NCBI RefSeq assembly: GCF_000146505.1
Contig: NC_017448.1
Span: forward strand, 3,210,001 to 3,242,000
Origin: Fibrobacter succinogenes subsp. succinogenes S85
GTDB lineage: Bacteria > Fibrobacterota > Fibrobacteria > Fibrobacterales > Fibrobacteraceae
DNA: 32,000 nucleotides
Direction of reading: 5' to 3'
Below the pieces are notes generated by a model. It saw only the letters and a program-made list of their open reading frames with translations, was not told the origin of the DNA and did not search any database. A program made the translations under genes and the position numbers. Of the stretch, positions 1-29,063 are shown one piece after another. Each line of letters starts with the position of its first letter. Within the stretch, counting starts at the first letter, position 1.

Positions 1-604
1 CTCCAAACGTCGTGACCTGAACGGTCTTGAAATTCTTGTCGCCAGCTTTGCTGGACTGGAAAAACTTGTTCAAAGAACTTGCGAGAGCTTCGCCTTTTTC
101 CTTTGAACGGCAAACTATAGTAAGCTCGTTTTTTTGTTCCACAAGTGTAAACGCAATCGACTGGGCGGCGCCACCGTTTCCGAGGAGTGCAATCTTCTTG
201 TTAGACGGACTTACGCCATTCTCTTCGAGATTTCGCACGCAACCATAAGGATCCGTCGTCGTTCCGCAGAGAGTCCCGCCGACAATGCCGTCCTTCCAGT
301 ACAGCGTGTTCACGCTGCCGGTGAACTTCGAAATTTCCGAAAGTTCATCTACTAGGCGGGCAGTTCCGTCTGCATTGAAGAATTCCGTCTTGTAGGGGAT
401 GGTGACGTTTGCACCATGGAACTTCATCGCCTTGAAGCCTTGAATCGCTTGGGCGAAATTTTCTGGTTCGGGTGCGTAGGGGAGATATGCCGCATTGATG
501 CCAAGGGCGTCAAAAAGGGCGTTGTGCATAGCGGGCGATTTGCTGTGAGCAACCGGATGCCCGAAAATGCAAAGAGTTTCCGTCTTTCCGTTTATGGAAG
601 CCAA
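1..604 (-). CDS. aroE: Shikimate 5-dehydrogenase, N-terminal ~200 aa; 3' end runs off the window
   Basis: Absent from the ORF track because it is open to the window edge. My reverse-strand translation is stop-free from 604 to 1. It reads ...TLCIFGHPVAHSKSPAMHNALFDALGINAAYLPY...FKAMKFHGANVTIPYK...GSVNTLYW...GTTTDPYG...KIALLGNGGAAQSIAF. These are the canonical AroE motifs (HSxSPxxHN, GxNVTxPxK, NT, TD-xG, GxGGA). Start placed at TTG 604; there is no in-frame ATG upstream of the conserved N-terminus, so the start is uncertain by a few codons. Confidence 0.8.
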   Translation of the reverse strand, partial: MASINGKTETLCIFGHPVAHSKSPAMHNALFDALGINAAYLPYAPEPENFAQAIQGFKAMKFHGANVTIPYKTEFFNADGTARLVDELSEISKFTGSVNTLYWKDGIVGGTLCGTTTDPYGCVRNLEENGVSPSNKKIALLGNGGAAQSIAFTLVEQKNELTIVCRSKEKGEALASSLNKFFQSSKAGDKNFKTVQVTTFG

Positions 605-706
605 AGTAACCTCGTATGTCCTTCCCACCTGTGGGGAAAAACTCTAAATAATACACTACAAAGATATATTATTCTAGATAAAAAATTATGCAATAAGAAA
701 TTAACA

Positions 707-745
707 GTGGTTAGTAGGCAGTAGGAAGTAGACGGTAGGAAGAGG
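707..745 (+). repeat. Degenerate tandem heptamer array (GTAGGNA-type, ~5 units)
   Basis: Read directly: GTGGTTA GTAGGCA GTAGGAA GTAGACG GTAGGAA GAGG. Lies in the divergent aroE/der spacer. Confidence 0.85.
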
Positions 746-762
746 CTTTCCCGCCGGAACCT

Positions 763-2900: not shown

Positions 2901-2911
2901 GTAGGATGTGG

Positions 2912-3083
2912 GCTATGGGCTCGCTTGCGATGCTCGCTTTGGGGTATGAGGCTCTTTTTATCGCTTTATACTAGGTCTATATTCTGTAAATTATATAGAT
3001 TATAGCGAAAAGGTCGCATTTAAAAGCCCAAAGCGTAGCGTGCTCACACCTCAAAGGGAGCCGTAGGCGACCGTGCTCATAGC
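2912..3083. repeat. Imperfect inverted pair of GCTATGGG/TTTGRGG elements (family 2) around an AT-rich centre
   Basis: Left arm 2912-2951: GCTATGGGCTCGCTTGCGATGCTCGCTTTGGGGTATGAGG. The reverse complement of the right arm (3026-3083) is GCTATGAGCACGGTCGCCTACGGCTCCCTTTGAGGTGTGAGCACGCTACGCTTTGGGC. Positions 3030-3046 (AAAGCGTAGCGTGCTCA) are identical to 27633-27649. Confidence 0.85.
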
Positions 3084-3104
3084 TTTTAATAAGGAAACGA
3101 AATC

Positions 3105-4136: not shown

Positions 4137-4191
4137 TTTAAATAAACTAACAAATACTCCGCCACGAGCGGAATTCACCTTTACATTGTCA

Positions 4192-4221
4192 CCCCGGCCA
4201 CCGTGCCGGGGTTGTCTTTTT
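4192..4221 (+). terminator. Intrinsic terminator after gpsA
   Basis: CCCCGGC-CACCGT-GCCGGGG (7-bp GC stem) followed by TTGTCTTTTT. Confidence 0.65.
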
Positions 4222-4226
4222 ATCCC

Positions 4227-4256
4227 GTCATCCTGAGGGCGAAAGCCCGAGGGATC
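4227..4256. repeat. Family 3 hairpin repeat variant
   Basis: GTCATCCTGAGGGC-GAAA-GCCCGAGGGATC: a stem with an internal mismatch pair and a GAAA loop. Shares the GTCAT...GGGATC frame of the other copies. Confidence 0.8.
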
Positions 4257-4550
4257 CATAATTTCTCGCCGAAAAAACAGAAAAACCATCAAAATCCTTC
4301 AAAATTTCAATTTGTAAACAAAAATTTACTTTTGAAAATTAAAATCAGATTTTGTTCTTTTGTCCGAAATCTCGAATTTTTAAAATTGCCGTTTTTGCTC
4401 AAATTTCGCTAAATATGTCAAAAAGTTTACAATTTTAGCACGTAATCTTTTTGTAAGAAGTTAGGCGTAAAAACGCAACTTTATTCCAAGTTGAAATATT
4501 TTTTTTGTAAGCAAAACTTAACTTTTGCGAAAAATTAATGTAAACTTTGT

Positions 4551-4571
4551 TTTGTGAAAGTTTTTCACAAA
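4551..4571. promoter_or_regulatory. Perfect 9-3-9 palindrome upstream of the FISUMP gene
   Basis: TTTGTGAAA-GTT-TTTCACAAA, 31 nt upstream of ATG 4602 and just 5' of the AAGGGAG Shine-Dalgarno. Either an operator or a 5'-UTR hairpin. Confidence 0.4.
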
Positions 4572-6802: not shown

Positions 6803-8947
6803 TTACTTCTTGAATACGCGCTGTGCGTTGTTCTTTGTCTTCAAGATGTAGGCGCCTTGGCGGATGCTCGGCTTGAGGGTACCGTTTTCGTTGAGCGCTT
6901 CGCTCTTGATGCCCTTCCACACGAGGTTTCCGTTCAAGTCGAAAATCATGGCTTGCGTCTTGCTGTCGTTGAAGGCAACTCTGCGGTTCATCTTGATGGA
7001 GCTGGAGCCTGTGCAGCCTGTGGCAACAATCTTTGCAATGTAGATGCCGGCAGATTCGCTGTTGAAGGTGAGTGCGGTAGAACCGTTTTCGCCTTCTTTC
7101 TTGAGAGAAACCTTGGTTTCGCTCCACTTGGAGCCGGCAGCGAGTTTGCCGTATTCGTAATCGACCCAGCTGCCGCCTGCAGCACCGCCCACGTTCACGT
7201 AAGCATCAGAAGTGCCCTGGCTGCGCATGGTGATGACGAGGTTAGAGCAAGAGGCGAGTGCCTTGGCGCCTTCTTCGCTGATGTTCAAGAGCTGGTTCTG
7301 GTAGCCGCAGGTTTCTTCGGACTGGTCGCAGCCGGCGAGCGGAACGCTTGCGTAGCCAGCGATGCCATCGATTGCCGTTGTGCCGTAGGTGACAGCGGAG
7401 AGCTTGTCATCCATGGCCTGCCAGGTCGTAACGTCGGTTGTTGCCGTGTAATCGACAATGACAACATCTGCTGTCGGAACGATAATCGGTTCGACGTAGC
7501 TGGAGTCGCTTGTTTCGTCCTTGCATGTTGCGACTGTGGAAGCGGCTGCGCCCTTCTTGTAAACGAGAGTCGTGATGGAACGTGCCGGGAGAACGGTACA
7601 TGCTGCAACAGAGATGTTCTTGCTCTTGAGGCCGTTTTCCTTGGACTGCACGGCGGTAACGAGGCCGTAGCCCGCGATGGCCGGGTTGTCGAGCTGGATG
7701 GCGGTGCTACCCGTATTGATAAGGATGGTCGAGATGGAATCGCCGTTTGCGCTGAGGAAGGCGACCGTCTTGAGGTTTGCGTCGTCAGTTGCGGTGGCAA
7801 TGACGCTTGCACCCGGATTCACGAACTTGGAATAGTGGCGCATGGCGTGGTATTCCGGGAAAATCTTGAAGCCGGCATCGTCACAGACGTACTTGCCACT
7901 GCCGTCGAGGTCCCAGCCTGCACCTGGGCAAACGCCGATCATCTGGGAGTGGTAACCCCAGAAAAGCTGCCAGGCAATGTAGCCGGAGAGGCGACCATCG
8001 GTAAAGCCGATCTGCATGATCTGGGCAAGGCCGAGCATGTCCTTTTCGCGCGGTTCATCAAGCATCGGGCAGAATTCCGTCATGATGATGGGCTTGTCGC
8101 CCTTGCCGTAAACGTCGGCGATGGCCTTCATCGGCTTGCGGAAGTTTTCCGGATCAAGGTAGTTGTTGCCGGAGTTGTCGTTTCCGTCACCGGCATGGTA
8201 AAGGTGGTAGGAATAGCCATCGAGCTTATTGGCGTCGAGTTCCTTGGCGTACTTTTCAAAGTTGCTGTAGCCAATACCGAGTGGTTCCGGGCCAATCAAC
8301 TTGGTTTGTCCCTTCACGGCGTCATAGACGGCGTTCAAGGCTTCCTTGTAACCGGCGATTTCGTTAGTTTCTGTTGGTTCGAAGAGTGTTTCTTCATAAT
8401 CGGCTTCCATGTCCGGTTCGTTCTGGAGAGAAACGTAGTCCGGAGAGATGCCTGCGGCCTTGTAGGCTTTGAGGCTCTTCTTCCACCAGTTGGCAAAATC
8501 ACTGTAGACGTATTTGCCATACGGGTCGCTGTTCGAGGTCTTGAGCGTGTTCTGGCTCTTGATCTTTTGTCCGTCCACTTTACCGTTCAAGTTGCCGCTC
8601 GGCTTGAGCTTTGCCGGAGCAGACCAGCTGGACATCTGGATTTTCATGTGGTCGCCGAGGCGGGTCTTGGCGGCCTTGACGATGTCAATGTCGTCCTGGA
8701 TTTTTGTGATATCTTCGTCCTGGTACCAGTTTCCCACGCGGAGCAGGGAAATGTTAAGGCCCGTGAATGCGGTATCGAAAAGGGCTTCTTGGTCTGCTGC
8801 GGGGAGGTTCTTGATCCAGCTCTGGTAGTAAACGCTTGCGCCACCGAAACCCGTAACTTTCTGGGCGGTGGAGGCGGGGTTTACCGTTACGCTTGCGGCA
8901 AGTGCGCTAGAGGCGAGCAAAGCCGTTAAAGACAAGTATTTTCTCAT
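6803..8947 (-). CDS. Secreted glycoside hydrolase family 30-like enzyme with extra C-terminal binding-type module and basic sorting-type tail
   Basis: Signal peptide MRKYLSLTALLASSALA. GFGGAS near the N-terminus, YVSLQNEPD (acid/base region) and IIMTEF (nucleophile region), as in GH30. A further ~150-aa module follows. The last ~60 aa (AMIFDLNGNLVWKG...RQGAYILKTKNNAQRVFKK) resemble a T9SS/Por-type C-terminal domain. Confidence 0.8.
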   Translation of the reverse strand: MRKYLSLTALLASSALAASVTVNPASTAQKVTGFGGASVYYQSWIKNLPAADQEALFDTAFTGLNISLLRVGNWYQDEDITKIQDDIDIVKAAKTRLGDHMKIQMSSWSAPAKLKPSGNLNGKVDGQKIKSQNTLKTSNSDPYGKYVYSDFANWWKKSLKAYKAAGISPDYVSLQNEPDMEADYEETLFEPTETNEIAGYKEALNAVYDAVKGQTKLIGPEPLGIGYSNFEKYAKELDANKLDGYSYHLYHAGDGNDNSGNNYLDPENFRKPMKAIADVYGKGDKPIIMTEFCPMLDEPREKDMLGLAQIMQIGFTDGRLSGYIAWQLFWGYHSQMIGVCPGAGWDLDGSGKYVCDDAGFKIFPEYHAMRHYSKFVNPGASVIATATDDANLKTVAFLSANGDSISTILINTGSTAIQLDNPAIAGYGLVTAVQSKENGLKSKNISVAACTVLPARSITTLVYKKGAAASTVATCKDETSDSSYVEPIIVPTADVVIVDYTATTDVTTWQAMDDKLSAVTYGTTAIDGIAGYASVPLAGCDQSEETCGYQNQLLNISEEGAKALASCSNLVITMRSQGTSDAYVNVGGAAGGSWVDYEYGKLAAGSKWSETKVSLKKEGENGSTALTFNSESAGIYIAKIVATGCTGSSSIKMNRRVAFNDSKTQAMIFDLNGNLVWKGIKSEALNENGTLKPSIRQGAYILKTKNNAQRVFKK

Positions 8948-9009: not shown

Positions 9010-9038
9010 AAGATACTAAAAGTAATAAGGAGTTTCAA
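9010..9038 (-). promoter_or_regulatory. Putative sigma70-like promoter of the GH30 gene
   Basis: Minus strand: TTGAAA (9038-9033), 17-nt spacer, TATCTT (9015-9010). Consensus use in this phylum is assumed, not known to me. Confidence 0.35.
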
Positions 9039-9044
9039 GAATTT

Positions 9045-9106
<62 letters not shown>

Positions 9107-9133
9107 ATCTCTCTTTTCTCTAAAAGAAAATAA

Positions 9134-9185
9134 CTAAGTTCTAAGAGCGGAGCGGACTAAGCTCTGCTAACTGCGCCACAGGCGC
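9134..9185. repeat. 52-nt family 1 element, copy 1 (abuts the stop codon of the 9185..10357 gene)
   Basis: CTAAGTTCTAAGAGCGGAGCGGACTAAGCTCTGCTAACTGCGCCACAGGCGC. About 85% identical to 22250-22301 and 28446-28497. Confidence 0.95.
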
Positions 9186-10357
9186 TAGTAAGCGCCTTCG
9201 CCCTTGAACACGACCTTGAACGTCTTGAGGATGAGCTTGATGTCTTCGCTGAGCTTTCCATCGCGACGGATGTAGTCGTTGTCCAGGCGCATCTGGCCTT
9301 CAAACGAGATGTTGCTACGGCCACTGACCTGCCAAATGCAGGTGAGGCCCGGAGTCACGGAAAGGCGCATGCGGTGCCAAGGTTCGTATTCTGCCACTTC
9401 GGACGGAATGGGCGGGCGCGGTCCGACAATGGACATTTCGCCCTTGAGAATGTTGATGAGCTGCGGCAGTTCGTCGAGGCTGAATTTGCGGAGGATGTGG
9501 CCGAACGGATAAATACGCGGGTCGTTCTTCATCTTGAACGTCTTTCCGCCCGTTTCGTTCTGGGCCATCAGTTCCTTTTTGCGTTCTTCTGCATCAACGT
9601 ACATACTGCGGAACTTGTACATCGTAAATAATGCGCCGTTCTTGCCGACTCGGGTCTGCTTGAAGATAATCGGTCCCTTCGGGTCGCTAATCTTGACGGC
9701 GAGGGCGCAGAACAAGAGGACAGGCGATAGAGCGATGAGCGCAACGGATGTGCAGGTAATATCAACCATTCTCTTGATGATGTGTCTAAAGCGAATCTTG
9801 TGCGGGTGTACCCAGATGTCTGAAAGGTTCAAACGGTTGAGCGTAAAGAAACTACCGTTTGTGCTGTTGAACTCCTTGAGCTTGTTGTCCATTTCAAGGT
9901 TGTCTTTTTCCTGGTACCCCGTGTAGAGGTAGGCCTGGAAAATAGGAGCTTTCGGCTTGTGGCGGAGTGCCTGGATGAGCCCTGCGTCGTTGAGCTTGTG
10001 GAGGATTTCCTTGCGGATACCTTCAAGCGTGCTCATATCGGAATTCAAAAGGATGATGCCAATACCGCTGTTGTCGGAGAGGTAGCCCAGTACGTCGATA
10101 AAGCGCAGATGTGAAAACATCGTAAGCACGCTAATCTTCCAAGTATTTTCAACAATCTTGGACGGACGGCCCCAGCCGAGCACATCGTACTGGTGCGAAT
10201 AAATCTTGATGAAAAGGAAAGGCTTGCGGGTGCGGTTCGCACGCAAAAACTCCTCGTTCAACCGCGCCTTGAACAGCCTGGCCGGGTAAACGATGTTTTT
10301 CAGTTTTTGTTCGTTAAGGATTGAACCGATAGTCGGATTTACTGCTTCCTGTTCCAT
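9185..10357 (-). CDS. Polyprenyl-phosphate sugar phosphotransferase (small PglC/WbaP-type catalytic domain) with an N-terminal degenerate GGDEF-like domain
   Basis: C-terminal ~200 aa: re-entrant helix, then PIIFKQTRVGKNGALFTMYKFRSM...KNDPRI...LRKFSLDELPQLINILKGEMSIVGPRP...PGLTCIWQV (Bac_transf motifs). N-terminal 190 aa carry the LFKARLNEEFLRANRTRKPF...RFIDVLGYLSDNSGIGIILLNSD pattern. Confidence 0.85.
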   Translation of the reverse strand: MEQEAVNPTIGSILNEQKLKNIVYPARLFKARLNEEFLRANRTRKPFLFIKIYSHQYDVLGWGRPSKIVENTWKISVLTMFSHLRFIDVLGYLSDNSGIGIILLNSDMSTLEGIRKEILHKLNDAGLIQALRHKPKAPIFQAYLYTGYQEKDNLEMDNKLKEFNSTNGSFFTLNRLNLSDIWVHPHKIRFRHIIKRMVDITCTSVALIALSPVLLFCALAVKISDPKGPIIFKQTRVGKNGALFTMYKFRSMYVDAEERKKELMAQNETGGKTFKMKNDPRIYPFGHILRKFSLDELPQLINILKGEMSIVGPRPPIPSEVAEYEPWHRMRLSVTPGLTCIWQVSGRSNISFEGQMRLDNDYIRRDGKLSEDIKLILKTFKVVFKGEGAY

Positions 10358-14578: not shown

Positions 14579-14591
14579 TTAAAGGTTGTAT

Positions 14592-16043
14592 ATGATTCGC
14601 GCAACTACTATGGAACGAATTCTCTTAATCCTCTCGGATTTTGCCGCTTTGTCGATTTGTTTCGCCTTGGCGTTTTGGGTTCAGTTCCATAGTGGCCTTA
14701 TCGTAGACAAGTTCGACCCGACCAAGACGTTTGATAGCTATTGGCAGTACGGCCTTGTCTTGAATATCGGGTGGCTAACCTTGTTTGCCTTTGCCGGATT
14801 GTATCGTTCCTGGCTTTTGTTATCAAGAACACACCAGGTCTTGCGCGTTCTCCGTGCGGTTGTCATTGGTGTGGTCTTGGTGATTGTCTGTCTGTTCGGT
14901 GCCGAGTTCATGGGGAAGGTCTTTACGAACCAACCGCTCAATGAAGGCTATCTCTATGGTTCCCGGTTCCCGTGGATATTTATATATGGCGGACTTGCCA
15001 TTTTGCTTGTCGGCTTGTTCCGCATGTTTATCTATATCTTCTTGCGTGCTCTGCTCCGTAAGGGCTATGGAGCGAACAATATCCTTGTGCTTGGCGCTAC
15101 CGAAGCGGGTAAAAAGATTGCTCGTGATCTGGCGAAGACTCCGGCTCGTGGTCAGCGCGTTGTGGGCTTTGTCGATGAACGCTACCAGGTCTTGCCGAAA
15201 AAGTTTGCGAAGGTTCCGGTTCTCGGCAAGTATTCCGATTTGCCTGCTCTTGTCAAGAAGTACAAGGTTAGTGGCATTATCATCGCGCACGAAAGTACGT
15301 CTCCGCAAGAGATTATGCGCGTGCTCGTCTGGATTTGCGAACTCCCGCTCCATATTTACATTGTTCCTGAACTTTATAGCGTCGTGAATGGCCGCTTCAA
15401 GGCAAACCTTGTTTACGGTTTTGAATTGCAGGAACTTTTTGCGTTTACGATGCCGCCTTGGCAGGTTCGCGTCAAGCGCATTATCGATATTGCTTTTGGC
15501 TTGTTCCTCGGGCTTTTGTCGCTCCCGGTATGTTTGTTTGCCGCTATTGCGATTAAGCTCGATGACCATGGCCCCATTTTCTATTCGCAGGAACGCATTG
15601 GCCTTTATGGCAAGCCGTTTACAGTTTACAAGTTCCGCACGATGCGTACCGATGCCGAAAAGTTTGGAGCTCAGTGGGCGACCAAGAAGGACCCGCGCAT
15701 CACGCGAATAGGCCGTTTTTTGCGCAAGACCCGTATTGATGAACTTCCGCAGATTCTTTGTGTTTTGAAAGGCGATATGAGCATGGTGGGGCCGCGTCCG
15801 GAACGCGCCGTGTTTATTGGCAAACTCCGTGAACAGATCCCGTTCTACATCAGCCGCCTCAAGATGAAACCGGGCCTCACTGGCTGGGCTCAGGTTTGCC
15901 ACCACTACGATACGAGCATTGAAGATGTGCAGATCAAGCTCCAGTACGACATGTACTATTACGAGAATATGAGCTTGCTTTTGGATTTCCAGATTCTCGT
16001 ACGAACCGTTTATGTTGTGCTGACAGGCAAGGGTGCTCAATAG
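14592..16043 (+). CDS. Large (WbaP/CpsE-type) polyprenyl glycosylphosphotransferase
   Basis: Four to five N-terminal TM helices. Rossmann-like [14 protein letters not shown] segment. C-terminal Bac_transf domain ([24 protein letters not shown]...[23 protein letters not shown]...[10 protein letters not shown]...PGLTGWAQV). ATG 14592 is preceded by AAAGG; the ORF track's TTG 14586 is less likely. The start lies 13 nt after the hom stop. Confidence 0.9.
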
Positions 16044-16045
16044 CA

Positions 16046-16087
16046 ACTGCCTACTAATCACCAACCACTAACCACTAATTACTAATC
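16046..16087 (+). repeat. Tandem heptamer array filling the whole PGT-nadC spacer
   Basis: ACTGCCT ACTAATC ACCAACC ACTAACC ACTAATT ACTAATC, immediately followed by the nadC ATG. Confidence 0.9.
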
Positions 16088-16951
16088 ATGTACGGCGATA
16101 ATTCTACTCCAGTATTCCCAACCGAAGATGCTTTGACCATGATCCGCCTCGCATTGGCGGAAGACGTTCGCACGGGCGACGTGACCAGTGAATGGACCAT
16201 CCCCGCGGACCAGAAACAGCATGCCCGCCTCATCGCCAAAGAAGATGGCGTGCTCGCCGGCCTCCCGATTATTGAACTCGTGTTCCAGGAACTCAAGGCA
16301 AACGCCAAGGTGACGCTCCACAAGAATGATGGTGACGTCGTGAAGAAAGGCGACCTGATTGCCGAACTTGATGGCACGACTCATGAACTTTTGACGGGCG
16401 AACGTACGCTCTTGAACTTCATCCAGCAGCTCTCTGGTGTGGCAACGGTTGCTCACACGTTCCAGGAAGCCTTGAAGGGCGGTAAGACCAAGGTTCTCGA
16501 CACCCGCAAGACGATTCCGGGTTTCCGCACTTTGCAGAAGTACGCCGTTCGCGTCGGTGGTGGTTCCAATCACCGCATGGGCCTCTTTGATATGGTGCTC
16601 GTGAAGGACAATCACATTGCAGCTGCTGGTGGCGTGCTCGAAGCTCTCGAAGTCGTCAAGAAGAACAACAAGCAGGGCTTGATGGTTGAAATGGAAGTTG
16701 AAAATTTTGACCAGCTCCGCGCTCTCCTCAATAAGGGCGTTGACGTCATTATGCTCGACAACATGAGCAACGAAATGATGGCCGAAGCTTTGAAGATTAT
16801 CAAGGAAAGCGGCGACAAGTGCCTCGTGGAAGGTTCTGGCAACATGACGCTCGAACGTGCGAAGCAGATTGCAACGCTCGGTCTTGACTTCATCTCTGTC
16901 GGTGCTCTCACGCACAGCGTCAAAGCCCTTGACATCTCGATGAGAATTTAA
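16088..16951 (+). CDS. nadC: Nicotinate-nucleotide pyrophosphorylase (quinolinate phosphoribosyltransferase)
   Basis: LAEDVRTGDVTS, GERTLLNFIQQLSGVAT, DTRKTIPGFRTLQKYAVRVGGGSNHRMGLFDMVLVKDNH. A possible alternative start is Met18. Confidence 0.93.
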   Translation: MYGDNSTPVFPTEDALTMIRLALAEDVRTGDVTSEWTIPADQKQHARLIAKEDGVLAGLPIIELVFQELKANAKVTLHKNDGDVVKKGDLIAELDGTTHELLTGERTLLNFIQQLSGVATVAHTFQEALKGGKTKVLDTRKTIPGFRTLQKYAVRVGGGSNHRMGLFDMVLVKDNHIAAAGGVLEALEVVKKNNKQGLMVEMEVENFDQLRALLNKGVDVIMLDNMSNEMMAEALKIIKESGDKCLVEGSGNMTLERAKQIATLGLDFISVGALTHSVKALDISMRI

Positions 16952-16960
16952 TTTGAATTT

Positions 16961-17039
16961 GTCATGGCGGGATTGCCCCGCCATCTAGCTGTCATGCTTA
17001 CAGCAGAATTGTCATGCCCGCCACCGAGCGGGCATCTCC
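16961..17039. repeat. Cluster of three family 3 GTCAT units (two with strong hairpins)
   Basis: GTCATGGCGGG-ATTGC-CCCGCCATC (16961-16985), GTCATGCTTACAGCAG (16991-), GTCATGCCCGC-CACCGA-GCGGGCATCTCC (17011-17039). Confidence 0.9.
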
Positions 17040-22203: not shown

Positions 22204-22230
22204 AGAAAAAAGCCGCTTTGCCGCGGCTTC
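22204..22230 (-). terminator. Terminator-like hairpin plus T-tract ending 2 nt before the TPM gene ATG
   Basis: Minus strand: AAGCCGC-GGCAAA-GCGGCTT-TTTTCT-ATG. Confidence 0.5.
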
Positions 22231-22249: not shown

Positions 22250-22301
22250 CTAAGTTCTAAGAGCGCAGCGGTCTAAGTTCTACCAACTGCGCCTCCGGCG
22301 C
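22250..22301. repeat. 52-nt family 1 element, copy 2 (ends next to the stop codon of 22302..23516)
   Basis: CTAAGTTCTAAGAGCGCAGCGGTCTAAGTTCTACCAACTGCGCCTCCGGCGC. Confidence 0.95.
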
Positions 22302-23516
22302 CTACTTGCAGAGCGGCAACAGCTGCTTCTGGAGAGGGCTAAAGTCCGTCTTCTTGATAGCGCTGATGGTTGCATCAACTTCATTCTTGCCGACACCTTT
22401 TGCCGTTGTGAAAAAGTTGACCTTGTCGCCCTTGATAGAGATGGTAAAGTCAAAAGACGAAATGAACCCGAGCCTGCCTCTAAAGGTGTTTTCAATTTCT
22501 ACGCTGAGCTCCGGTGCTGCAATTTCTTCATCGTCTGTAGCAAAGATGGATTTTTTAGAAAGAGCATTTTCAAGAGCGCTGCAAGCGTTTGCAATCATGT
22601 CGCAGTTTAGCTTGACTTCACAACGGGAAAGCTTCACGCGGTAAGGAACTTCAAGAGCGTTCTTCAAACCTGCTTTTTTTAAAATTTCAAGCGGGAAGTT
22701 CGGTTCCACGATAATCACGTATGGGCCTTTTTCGTAGTTCACGTTGCGTAACTTGAACGTAGCGATTCCATTCTTCTGCGTGCGTCGTTCCGAAAGCGTC
22801 TTGCTCTGGCGAGCGACAAGCGGGAAGCTTGGCACAGGGCCGATGGAGTCCTTGACAACGACATTCCAGGAAGGCATTTCGGCCTTGGTCAATTCAAAGT
22901 TCGGTTCTGTTGTCGTTGTAATCGTGATATTCGAAAGCCTTTCGATGAGCAACTTTTCAATTTCCGGAAGTCCGTGTTCCAAACGGTGGCTGTCGTTGAG
23001 CGGATAGATATCGGCGAGTTGGAGCAAGTAGAAATTGTATTCGTTGACCTTGTCTTCCGCCTTTTCCAAATCGTTAGCCGCATTGATATAAACGCGGGTA
23101 TCAATTGCCTTTCTGGATGACTTTTCAAGCTTTGCAATTTCTTGCTTTAAAGTCTTTAAACGGAATTGGAGGCTTGCCGTAAACTCGTCCATGTCGAGAG
23201 TTGCGGTAGCCTTGAAGCCTTTATCCACTTTTACAGGAGTCACCTTGACGCCTTTCAAGACGACGTTGCTCTTGACATTGCTCTTGGACCTGTACGTTTC
23301 ACCGAGGACGCTCTTGCCATCGTTGATGTCTTCGTACTTGGTCAGAGTTTGAGTGGCGCTAACTTGGGACTTGATCTGCTTTGCGACGCCTGCCATGGCT
23401 GTATTGTTCGCATCTTCTTGCGATACTGTGGAGGTGGCGGTGTAGGTGACGATTTTCCCTGCCATCGCCGGGATTACAGCAAGACACGCACAAAGGATAA
23501 GGCTTCTGATATTCAT
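22302..23516 (-). CDS. Secreted protein with LPP20-like N- and C-terminal segments, a coiled coil and a beta-rich middle
   Basis: Signal peptide ...AVIPAMA|GK. QEDANNTAMAGVAKQIKSQVSA and TTAKGVGKNEVDATISAIKK resemble the LPP20-type pattern. Heptad-like region LQFRLKTLKQEIAKLEKSS. The start lies 2 nt after the upstream gene's stop. Confidence 0.65.
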   Translation of the reverse strand: MNIRSLILCACLAVIPAMAGKIVTYTATSTVSQEDANNTAMAGVAKQIKSQVSATQTLTKYEDINDGKSVLGETYRSKSNVKSNVVLKGVKVTPVKVDKGFKATATLDMDEFTASLQFRLKTLKQEIAKLEKSSRKAIDTRVYINAANDLEKAEDKVNEYNFYLLQLADIYPLNDSHRLEHGLPEIEKLLIERLSNITITTTTEPNFELTKAEMPSWNVVVKDSIGPVPSFPLVARQSKTLSERRTQKNGIATFKLRNVNYEKGPYVIIVEPNFPLEILKKAGLKNALEVPYRVKLSRCEVKLNCDMIANACSALENALSKKSIFATDDEEIAAPELSVEIENTFRGRLGFISSFDFTISIKGDKVNFFTTAKGVGKNEVDATISAIKKTDFSPLQKQLLPLCK

Positions 23517-25476: not shown

Positions 25477-25479
25477 GAG

Positions 25480-25582
25480 GTGTGGGGGGATGGGCTCGGG
25501 GCTAAAGCTCCTTTGGGCTATGGGCTATAGCTCAAAAGCTCAGAGCGAAGCGACCTGAGAGTGCGAAGCACGACCCCATAGC
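25480..25582. repeat. Family 2 elements between convergent genes; the last 45 nt abut the lnt stop codon
   Basis: GATGGGCTCG-GGGCTAAAGCTCC-TTTGGGCTATGGGCTATAGC..., then 25538-25582, whose reverse complement is GCTATGGGGTCGTGCTTCGCACTCTCAGGTCGCTTCGCTCTGAGC. Confidence 0.9.
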
Positions 25583-27526: not shown

Positions 27527-27531
27527 TTTTA

Positions 27532-27679
27532 GCTATGGGGTCGGCGCGTTGCGCCTTTGGGGTCGCTTCGCTTTGAGGTTGTCTGGTATGGGATTGTGAG
27601 GTTGAGTGCTTTTTAGAATTTGCTCATAGCCGAAAGCGTAGCGTGCTCAGAGAGCGAAGCTCGACCTCATGCCCGAATC
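27532..27679. repeat. Family 2 composite filling the rsmI-lnt spacer
   Basis: 27532-27578: GCTATGGGGTCGGCGCGTTGCGCCTTTGGGGTCGCTTCGCTTTGAGG. Then GGTATGGGATTGTGAGGTTGAGTGC / TTTTTAGAATTT / an inverted arm containing AAAGCGTAGCGTGCTCA (27633-27649). Confidence 0.9.
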
Positions 27680-28384: not shown

Positions 28385-28419
28385 TAGAACTTAGAGCTTA
28401 GAACTTAGAGCTTAGAACT
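28385..28419 (+). repeat. Tandem heptamer array alternating TAGAACT/TAGAGCT (5 units)
   Basis: TAGAACT TAGAGCT TAGAACT TAGAGCT TAGAACT, 22 nt upstream of the rsmI ATG. Confidence 0.95.
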
Positions 28420-28445
28420 TTGCTTTTTCCTCTAAGTTCTGCCAA

Positions 28446-28497
28446 CTAAGTTCTAAGAGCGAAGCGGGCTAAGTTCAGCCAACTGCGGCGAAGCCGC
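28446..28497. repeat. 52-nt family 1 element, copy 3 (overlaps the stop codon of 28497..29063 by 1 nt)
   Basis: CTAAGTTCTAAGAGCGAAGCGGGCTAAGTTCAGCCAACTGCGGCGAAGCCGC. Preceded by an extra CTCTAAGTTCTGCCAA partial unit at 28430-28445. Confidence 0.95.
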
Positions 28498-29063
28498 TAA
28501 TAATCACTCACGCTGTTCAAATCTGTGAGTCTGTTCCCGTTGAGTTCAAATGCCAAGCGCTGCACTAGCTTGCGGTGCATTTCATTGGACGCCTTGTTCA
28601 CGAGGTCTGTGCGGAGTCGCCCGTATAAAATGGCGTTAATGTCTTGCTGCTCAATGAATTCCACATGGCGTACGAGCGTTCCGTTGCAAAAGATGCGTGC
28701 CGATAGTTCGTATGTCCAGGATTCATTGACGGGGAGGATGGGCCACAGCGGAATGAGGACTCCAATGTTCCAGGCGGAGTTCGGTTCGTTCTGATGGACT
28801 GTCGCCTTGATGGTTGCCTCTCCACGGCAGGATTCTCGTGAAAACTCTTTTTCACTTGCAGCTTTGGTGTAGGCCCGGAGCAAATCTTGCGAGAGTTCTA
28901 GCGAATCGCCCCCATATATAAAGGGAATGTTCCCGAAGAAACTGTAATTTTCTTCAGTTAGCGGGATCCCTTCGAGGTCGCCTTGCGTGAGATTCATGGA
29001 GCACCCGGAGAGAATGGCTGCAAAAGCGATAGCTAGACATGAAAATTTGACGATGGAGCGCAT
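28497..29063 (-). CDS. Small lipoprotein of unknown function
   Basis: Canonical lipobox ILSGC|S. 188 aa. No recognisable family. Confidence 0.65.
   Translation of the reverse strand: MRSIVKFSCLAIAFAAILSGCSMNLTQGDLEGIPLTEENYSFFGNIPFIYGGDSLELSQDLLRAYTKAASEKEFSRESCRGEATIKATVHQNEPNSAWNIGVLIPLWPILPVNESWTYELSARIFCNGTLVRHVEFIEQQDINAILYGRLRTDLVNKASNEMHRKLVQRLAFELNGNRLTDLNSVSDY

Follow-up and report, generated by a model that had tools for sequence, protein, structure and literature searches.

We analysed a window of 32,000 nt from Fibrobacter succinogenes subsp. succinogenes S85 (contig NC_017448.1, positions 3,210,001 to 3,242,000; "the window" is this whole stretch), in which a 52-nt element occurs three times, each copy lying at the stop codon of a minus-strand open reading frame (ORF). 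A sequence-only reading of this DNA had taken the element for the first part of the 3' untranslated region (3' UTR) of unrelated genes. The explanation that we consider probable is a different one: the 52 nt are one module combination of a high-copy, modular, hairpin-forming and non-autonomous intergenic mosaic repeat of the F. succinogenes clade, similar in kind to repetitive extragenic palindromes and bacterial interspersed mosaic elements (REP/BIME) or to BOX elements.

Much of the original description of the three copies stands. The strings are present exactly as they were quoted, at 9134-9185, 22250-22301 and 28446-28497, and their pairwise identities of 45/52, 43/52 and 43/52 (83-87%) agree with the ~85% that was claimed. 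Each copy adjoins the TAG that ends a minus-strand ORF; the overlap is 1 nt for copies 1 and 3, and copy 2 touches the stop. The terminal hairpins, quoted as GCGCC-ACA-GGCGC, GCGCC-TCC-GGCGC and GCGGC-GAA-GCCGC, are as reported. The leading 16 nt, CTAAGTTCTAAGAGCG, have three exact occurrences on the plus strand of the window, while the chance expectation is 0.15 even if three mismatches are allowed. The element is real and non-random. As for the gene labels, the product encoded upstream of copy 1 is indeed a phosphoglycosyl transferase (Bac_transf), while the other two upstream proteins, tentatively named "LPP20-like" and "lipoprotein", have no Pfam match. The parts of the three copies and the ORFs that precede them are as follows.

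9185..10357, minus strand: ORF upstream of copy 1, stop codon TAG at 9185-9187
9173..9185, minus strand: GC hairpin module of copy 1 with a 3-nt loop, sense GCGCC-TGT-GGCGC, its first G being the G of the TAG stop
9134..9172, minus strand: 39-nt core of copy 1, sense AGTTAGCAGAGCTTAGTCCGCTCCGCTCTTAGAACTTAG
9107..9133, minus strand: spacer or loop of copy 1, sense TTATTTTCTTTTAGAGAAAAGAGAGAT
9044..9106, minus strand: inverted heptamer array of copy 1, (TTAGAAC)9 on the plus strand and (GTTCTAA)9 in sense, pairing with the core end CTTAGAACTTAG
22302..23516, minus strand: ORF upstream of copy 2, stop codon TAG at 22302-22304
22289..22301, minus strand: GC hairpin module of copy 2, sense GCGCC-GGA-GGCGC, directly 3' of that TAG
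22250..22288, minus strand: 39-nt core of copy 2, with no inverted array, followed by 19 nt and then by a terminator-like hairpin with a T-run
28497..29063, minus strand: ORF upstream of copy 3, stop codon TAG at 28497-28499
28485..28497, minus strand: GC hairpin module of copy 3, sense GCGGC-TTC-GCCGC, overlapping the TAG by 1 nt
28446..28484, minus strand: 39-nt core of copy 3
28432..28445, minus strand: extra "A module" of copy 3, sense TTGGCAGAACTTAG, repeated after the core
28421..28431, minus strand: spacer of copy 3 between the A module and the array
28385..28420, minus strand: inverted heptamer array of copy 3, five TAGAACT/TAGAGCT units

The 52 nt are thus two modules, a 39-nt core (AGTTGGCAGAACTTAGNCCGCTNCGCTCTTAGAACTTAG; in degenerate form, for instance, CTNAGAGCGNAGCGNNCTNAG) and an optional 13-nt GC hairpin with a 3-nt loop. 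When all copies are aligned the conserved unit is 39 nt long, conservation collapses just 5' of AGTTGG, and the hairpin is carried by 19 of 79 copies. The core is not palindromic; two N positions in it vary freely, and neighbouring positions that the search pattern does not fix are 85-100% conserved. Most copies continue with a spacer, often TTATTTTCTTTTAGAG..., and an inverted (GTTCTAA)n array of variable length that pairs with the core end. On the C-rich strand the full composite reads: stop codon (usually TAG), optional GC hairpin, TTGGCAGAACTTAG, NCCGCTNCGCTCTTAG, AACTTAG, spacer and (GTTCTAA)n, and TAG ends every module. Extra A modules are seen, array length varies between orthologs, and L034 holds a tandem duplication in which two cores are joined at ...AACTTAG|TTGG.... 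A pairing of GCGCAG with CTNCGC inside the element was dropped, since it is perfect only if N is G and N does not track the presence of the hairpin.

The arrays after copies 1 and 3, which the sequence-only reading overlooked, are the inverse complement of the element's own end, CTTAGAACTTAG. The copy 1 spacer TTATTTTCTTTTAGAGAAAAGAGAGAT is common to many other loci (e.g. L001, L008, L010, L044, L058 and L073), and the number of array units at copy 1 is not the same in the ortholog L073. Together, core end, spacer and array fold into a long hairpin of -45 kcal/mol at each of the two copies (z=-3.3 for copy 1 and z=-3.9 for copy 3). Folded alone, the 52-nt unit does no better than shuffled sequences (z -0.6 to -1.1), so that the idea of a structured 52-mer reduces to the 13-nt hairpin. 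The statement that this is not a textbook intrinsic terminator proved sound: a T-run follows neither hairpin nor array in the mRNA sense, and a terminator scan calls none of the three copies. The sole terminator-like site near them is a canonical hairpin with a T-run at 22230-22209 on the minus strand, 19 nt downstream of copy 2.

With the exact 19-base pattern CTTAGNCCGCTNCGCTCTTAG as query, a scan of prokaryotic genomes, one for each species, gave 74 loci, 70 of which belong to at least 12 Fibrobacter species-level genomes, with up to 30 copies in one metagenome-assembled genome (MAG). Orthologous loci were collapsed with blastn into 45 independent loci. An nhmmer search of all collected loci with a core profile added only two independent diverged copies, which argues against many decayed copies having escaped detection in this sample. 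The core pattern was unmatched among viral contigs, Rfam models found nothing in the window, whether at gathering scores or at E<=1, and literature searches returned no relevant account of Fibrobacter repeats, small RNAs or these heptamer words. Outside Fibrobacter, the same core with AGAACTT-type heptamer flanks is found in two MAGs labelled "archaeon" with 36% GC (L053:6900-7120 and L065:1900-2060), and core-like sequences are found in Bacteroidota MAGs (L024:265-330 and L035:860-920). In L053, whose contig also encodes a seryl-tRNA synthetase-like ORF, two heptamer arms enclose a C-rich insert of ~85 nt, and CCCCGCTYCCCCTGTTTCC is common to L053 and L065. These occurrences may reflect horizontal transfer or mis-binning; the GC skew at the four loci has mixed signs and is uninformative.

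All copies are intergenic, with genes around the loci called by a simple longest-ORF model. In the orientation of the element, the flanks of the 45 independent loci are tandem-sense in 14, tandem-antisense in 13, convergent in 10 and divergent in 5. The sequence-only reading had itself listed a lack of orientation bias among the results that would refute it, and the core shows no such bias: the upstream gene is co-oriented in 24 loci and not in 19 (p=0.54). By that standard a strand-specific role of the core in RNA falls away, and the description of the 52 nt as the first part of a 3' UTR does not hold in general, given a conserved unit of 39 nt, an optional hairpin and a core that lies in either orientation. 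The contact with stop codons is nevertheless close. For a co-oriented upstream gene the stop is found 2-37 nt ahead of the search pattern, hence at or inside the first bases of the element, and is often the TAG of TAGTTGGCAGAA. With convergent genes the heptamer array extends into their TAG; the element alone makes up some spacers (60 nt in L033, for example), and some copies lie 3-40 nt upstream of start codons. Among stops directly followed by family modules 77% are TAG, against 39% of other stops (p=6e-9). It should be noted that TAG, usually the rarest stop codon in bacteria, makes up 43% of stop codons and equals TAA among 545 long ORFs of all Fibrobacter loci; this high share is partly due to stops supplied by or adjoining repeats.

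What the orientation does follow is GC skew. In 60/71 loci and, after ortholog collapse, in 39/45 groups (binomial p=5e-7), the C-rich strand is the one that has the sequence of the window copies as read in mRNA sense, and the GAGCGNAGCGG strand lies on the G-rich strand. Gene orientation does not account for the skew of these loci, since the locus-level value is |0.095| while the fitted coding-strand effect is only 0.018, with 54% of coding bases on the G-rich strand; nor does the core itself create it, as its G and C counts are equal. With cores masked, no 7- or 8-mers of the loci were more strand-skewed than the array units (TTAGAAC 187 vs 37, CTTAGAAC 150 vs 18), so that the whole composite is polar. 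The plus strand of the window is G- and T-rich almost throughout, and all three copies have GAGCGNAGCGG on it. By Lobry's rule the G-rich strand would have the leading-strand sequence, i.e. that of the lagging-strand template. From the skew we infer that element orientation tracks replication, and that all three copies in the window point along the minus strand is most likely due to this polarity and not to the genes.

Comparison of relatives shows that the spacers holding the element turn over. For the copy 2 locus we gathered 48 metagenome orthologs of the upstream gene, and the stretch from its stop to a conserved terminator-like hairpin is a hot spot. Hairpin and core occur there in the same arrangement in ten orthologs; L075, whose flanking protein is 98% identical, has 60 unrelated nt and a TAA stop at this site, and other orthologs have different heptamer arrays, a partial TAGTTGGCACAACTT or other repeats. 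At this locus the GC hairpin is found only where the core is also present, which indicates that the two can move as one 52-nt unit with TAG on both sides. At the copy 3 locus the spacer is only 5-29 nt long in distant Fibrobacter species and 62-498 nt in close relatives, where four repeat types occur, each starting immediately after the same TAG, and the final ~20 nt ahead of the downstream ATG are kept. Orthologous spacers of distant species (L131-L134) lack the family. The terminator-like hairpin with T-run that bounds the copy 2 hot spot, AAGCCGCGGCAAAGCGGCTTTTTT (window 22204-22230), is present in nearly all orthologs L075-L113 and ends 2-3 nt ahead of the ATG of the downstream TPM-domain gene, an odd site for a terminator. 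Possible reasons are that the hairpin is regulatory in function or that translation of this gene really begins further downstream.

The hairpin-bearing copies obey the rule of sense orientation and stop contact that fails for the core generally. The upstream gene is co-oriented in 10/11 independent loci with the hairpin, against 14/32 without it (Fisher p=0.012), and in 9 of these 10 the stop touches the hairpin (offset -1 to +3 nt). The claim of compensatory stem changes is also borne out, both-side changes being seen at 4/5 pairs among 15 distinct hairpin copies, although the pairing percentage is inflated because rows were preselected for at least 4/5 pairs. An example free of this bias is the orthologous pair L004/L054, in which GCCGC-TTC-GCGGC and GCGGC-GTT-GCCGC differ by one flipped pair. 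The identical GCGCC-GGA-GGCGC hairpin also occurs at three unrelated loci (copy 2, L012/L056 and L058). The stop-adjacent hairpin variant may be under RNA- or translation-level selection, more probably so than any other part of the family, and one can ask if the whole family is a dedicated 3' UTR RNA element. Its GC hairpin and heptamer stem-loop would then stabilise the mRNA 3' end or block RNases, terminate transcription independently of a U-tract, or slow down translation termination. REPs stabilise upstream mRNA, and those within ~15 nt of a stop reportedly lower upstream expression via ribosome stalling and tmRNA (Liang, Rudd and Deutscher 2015). The good folding of the composites speaks for such an element, as does the fact that the stem-loop forms in either orientation because its arms are inverse heptamers. 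Yet the core lies antisense about as often as sense, also just upstream of start codons, and its orientation follows GC skew instead; the 52-nt unit alone folds like shuffled sequence, a U-tract is absent while canonical terminators exist in the same genome (one of them after copy 2), presence varies among relatives with a 98% identical flanking protein, Rfam has no match, and the stem statistics carry the preselection just described. On balance an RNA element seems unlikely to us as the explanation of the family.

The same strand polarity that counts against an RNA role could mark a polar DNA signal used by the host, a protein-binding or structure-forming site for replication, repair or segregation, such as KOPS-, Chi- or primosome-assembly-like sites or binding arrays of CTNAG heptamers. 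Besides the 39/45 polar loci, this finds support in the 37 near-invariant core positions beside two free ones, in the presence of the same core in distant phyla, and in the free position N2, which is the middle of GCGNAGC on the G-rich strand. GCGNAGC (N = any base) is an extraordinarily stable "mini-hairpin DNA" motif (PMC13037366), and in the window its density is 5.7 times higher between genes than in coding sequence. Outside the core, however, GCGNAGC is not significantly polarised (40 vs 27, p=0.14), which leaves the mini-hairpin reading as no more than a lead, and known polar signals are short and occur also within genes, whereas the element is 39+ nt long, strictly intergenic, polymorphic between close strains and missing from the orthologous spacers of other Fibrobacter species. 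A Chi-like role of AGCGG or GAAGCGG was rejected, since with cores masked these words show no skew (584 vs 656, z=-5.8, and 69 vs 50, z=0.4, respectively). We therefore consider a host signal improbable. Integron attC sites, imperfect inverted repeats that run from the stop of a cassette gene and are recombined as folded single strands, would likewise explain why the element starts at or overlaps a stop, is strand-specific and has an inverted-repeat architecture of variable length. They are contradicted by termini that, as read from the sequence, misfit the RYYYAAC / GTTRRRY core sites, by neighbours that are housekeeping genes in conserved synteny and mixed orientations (Lnt, an RsmI-like methylase, the phosphoglycosyl transferase), and by the lack of an integrase gene nearby; this explanation is extremely improbable.

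A mosaic repeat spread as mobile DNA therefore remains the explanation that we favour. The earlier suggestion of a REP- or MITE-like element (MITE, miniature inverted-repeat transposable element) stands as far as an interspersed repeat at stop codons is meant, and fails on the classical MITE side, with neither target-site duplication nor autonomous parent seen at the loci. The family would be non-autonomous DNA of the REP/BIME, BOX or IS200/IS605-derived kind, copied or inserted next to TAG while the DNA is single-stranded at the replication fork, and mobilised by some enzyme acting in trans. Its multi-copy, extragenic and modular nature, variable copy number, polymorphism, hairpins, TAG junction, lack of target-site duplication and orientation with the fork together fit spread via single-stranded intermediates. 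Because no enzyme was found, a single-strand or HUH-type mechanism is put forward only tentatively. Effects on mRNA would probably be secondary; they could come from the GC hairpin at the stop, from TAG codons in each of the three frames, and from the long stem-loop wherever it lies in a 3' UTR or an intercistronic spacer.

Several points weigh against this interpretation. Sense orientation and compensatory changes in the hairpin subfamily point to some selection at the RNA or translation level, and the near-invariant core could also mean a host function. Neither the copy 2 nor the copy 3 locus shows a target-site duplication, a clean filled/empty pair with exact boundaries was not recovered at either, and the variable spacers look replaced and not simply inserted. 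Within the 0.87 Mb of locus sequence, a phmmer search of all ORFs with E. coli RayT gave no match at E<0.5 and no transposase was found, both weak negatives from a small sample; inverted A modules within 4 kb, as expected of an autonomous parent, occur only in L007, where they flank ordinary genes and not a transposase. Exact stop adjacency could partly be a product of selection, if in short operon spacers only the position after the stop tolerates insertion. Polarity is broken in 6/45 loci, and that the G-rich strand of these contigs is the leading strand is presumed from Lobry's rule. Finally, the loci were gathered by an exact 19-base pattern, which is a source of ascertainment bias.

As an interspersed intergenic mosaic repeat, the family is unusual in its 7-nt building plan with TAG-ending units, its stop-codon junctions and its strong replication-strand polarity. 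One might go further and see in it an undescribed class of hairpin elements mobilised as single strands in step with replication, which insert at TAG stops and regenerate TAG at module boundaries so that stops are supplied or replaced, grow by 7-nt units, are oriented with the fork and use an enzyme of no known link to repeat families; this is speculative and seems rather unlikely to us. Were it true, the close similarity of the copies in the MAGs labelled "archaeon" and in those of Bacteroidota would point to transfer between phyla. In any case, the family appears to be undescribed in Fibrobacterota, where literature searches turned up none, and it is a clear example, established by computation, of an intergenic repeat that takes its direction from replication and not from transcription. 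Such direction is the signature expected of single-strand DNA mobilisation and could lead to the enzyme. Since the elements touch or provide the stops of many genes, fill whole spacers and vary even among very closely related strains, an influence on translation termination, on operon polarity and on the formation of 3' ends is likely in this major cellulose degrader of the rumen. As strain-typing markers they are ready for use, and annotators should be aware that what looks like a "conserved 3'-UTR motif" in these genomes could be mobile DNA.

Some further features lie close to the family or to its modules. At 12/13 positions the sequence of the A module, CAGTTGG(C/T)AGA(A/G)C, agrees with the D-arm consensus of tRNAs, CAGTTGGTAGAGC (window 22277-22290, sense GCGCAGTTGGTAGAAC), and judging from this match a tRNA-derived origin of the module is possible; ARAGORN calls no tRNA or tmRNA in the window. 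In L003, L042 and L068 genuine tRNA genes follow the element at a distance of ~100 nt, with a TTGACA-N17-TATATT-type promoter right after the element and ahead of them. In the window, a sigma-70-like promoter match, TTGAAA-17-TATCTT, is found just downstream of the copy 1 array (9010-9038, minus strand), and a GH30-like gene (6803..8947, minus strand) lies after it. These positions place the promoters outside the repeat.

Other intergenic repeats are present as well. The 38-nt spacer at window 16044-16081, between convergent ORFs 14586..16043 (plus strand) and 16082..16984 (minus strand), consists entirely of ACTAATC/ACCAACC-type heptamers bounded by the TAG stops of both genes; it has no 39-nt core and looks like another member of a heptamer-repeat superfamily. 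A second family, with GGGCTAT, CTCAGAG and CTGAGAG units around the mini-hairpin motifs GAGCGAAGCG, GTGCGAAGCAC and AGCGTAGCG, is present at window 2901-3104, 25477-25582 and 27527-27679, and its arrangement CTCAGAGCGAAGCGACCTGAGAG parallels CTAAGAGCGNAGCGGNCTAAG of the core studied here. A third module, GTCATYCYNGAG...GGRAWCCAGT, is seen at window 4137-4553 (around GTCATCCTGAGGGCGAAAGCCCGAGGGATCCA), in L007:620-680, L009, L055 and L124/L125/L129; in L125 it fills the post-TAG site that copy 3 holds in the window. A further repeat of ~60-70 nt, GGTTCGACAGGCTCA...CTTGCCGAA, lies downstream of the core or of a stop codon in L031, L039, L067 and L097, stands next to the family in several loci, and occupies the copy 2 hot spot in L097. 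At window 713-746 an array of AGTAGGC/AGTAGGA heptamers runs from the stop of ORF 416..724 (plus strand), and units of this type precede cores in L022, L023 and L055.

Among known systems, Rho-independent terminators share with the family a GC-rich stem-loop downstream of a stop codon, but they have the immediate U-tract that the family lacks; the stem of the latter is only 5 bp long, and canonical terminators are separate in the same spacers. Classical MITEs resemble it in having inverted arms, here of heptamers, but not in target-site duplication, and the single inverted pair of A modules mentioned above encloses no transposase. Intergenic tandem heptamers are known as TAACTGA repeats in Beggiatoaceae, Cyanobacteria and Bacteroidetes and as STRR in cyanobacteria (PMC4679880). 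Like the family, these have 7-nt units with stop codons, are only intergenic, vary in copy number and show a patchy distribution that suggests horizontal spread without a known mechanism (PMC4679880). TAACTGA repeats form mostly direct arrays just upstream of start codons (PMC4679880), and no conserved 39-nt core, inverted arrangement or skew polarity is reported for them. The arrays of our family (TTAGAAC nine times, TAGAACT/TAGAGCT five times in the window) do qualify as heptamer repeats and its core does not. BOX of Streptococcus pneumoniae, boxA-(boxB)n-boxC, is a modular intergenic element with stable predicted stem-loops that is co-transcribed with neighbouring genes and has no known transposase. 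It and, more loosely, ERIC, Correia/NEMIS and RUP agree with the family in modularity, intergenic location, variable number of an internal unit, predicted stem-loops and want of a known transposase; sequence, 7-nt unit, stop-codon adjacency and replication polarity set the family apart from BOX.

In mechanism the family may be likened to IS200/IS605 and their non-autonomous derivatives, which have hairpin ends rather than terminal inverted repeats, make no target-site duplication and insert next to a short specific word; in the family the left junction is TAG. In both IS200/IS605 and the REP/BIME-RAYT paradigm transposition prefers the lagging-strand template (PMC3333891), and the polarity in 39/45 loci matches such a bias if skew is read as replication direction. 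A TnpA/TnpB gene or full-length parent was not seen around the family, and heptamer arrays are not a feature of IS200/IS605. From the REP/BIME of Enterobacteria and Pseudomonas, served by RAYT (TnpA_REP) Y1 transposases, the family differs in its non-palindromic 39-nt core, in a perfect 5-bp stem with a 3-nt loop where REPs have an imperfect palindrome of 30-40 nt with a mismatch (20-40 nt in the wider definition, which also asks for a 5' GTAG or GGAG tetranucleotide), in the 7-nt period of TAG-ending units with long tandem arrays, and in giving no RAYT match among the ORFs of the locus sequence; to our knowledge, strong GC-skew polarity is also not a defining REP feature. The two nevertheless have several habits in common. 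Both are high-copy and strictly extragenic, located between cistrons or at the 3' ends of genes whichever way transcription runs (for the family, ~75 copies in at least 12 genomes), and both are mosaics of few modules whose copy number varies per locus and whose presence varies between strains. The REP hairpin is preceded by GTAG and bound as single-stranded DNA by RAYT (PMC3333891), and many copies of the family carry G/C/T-TAG just before a GC hairpin.

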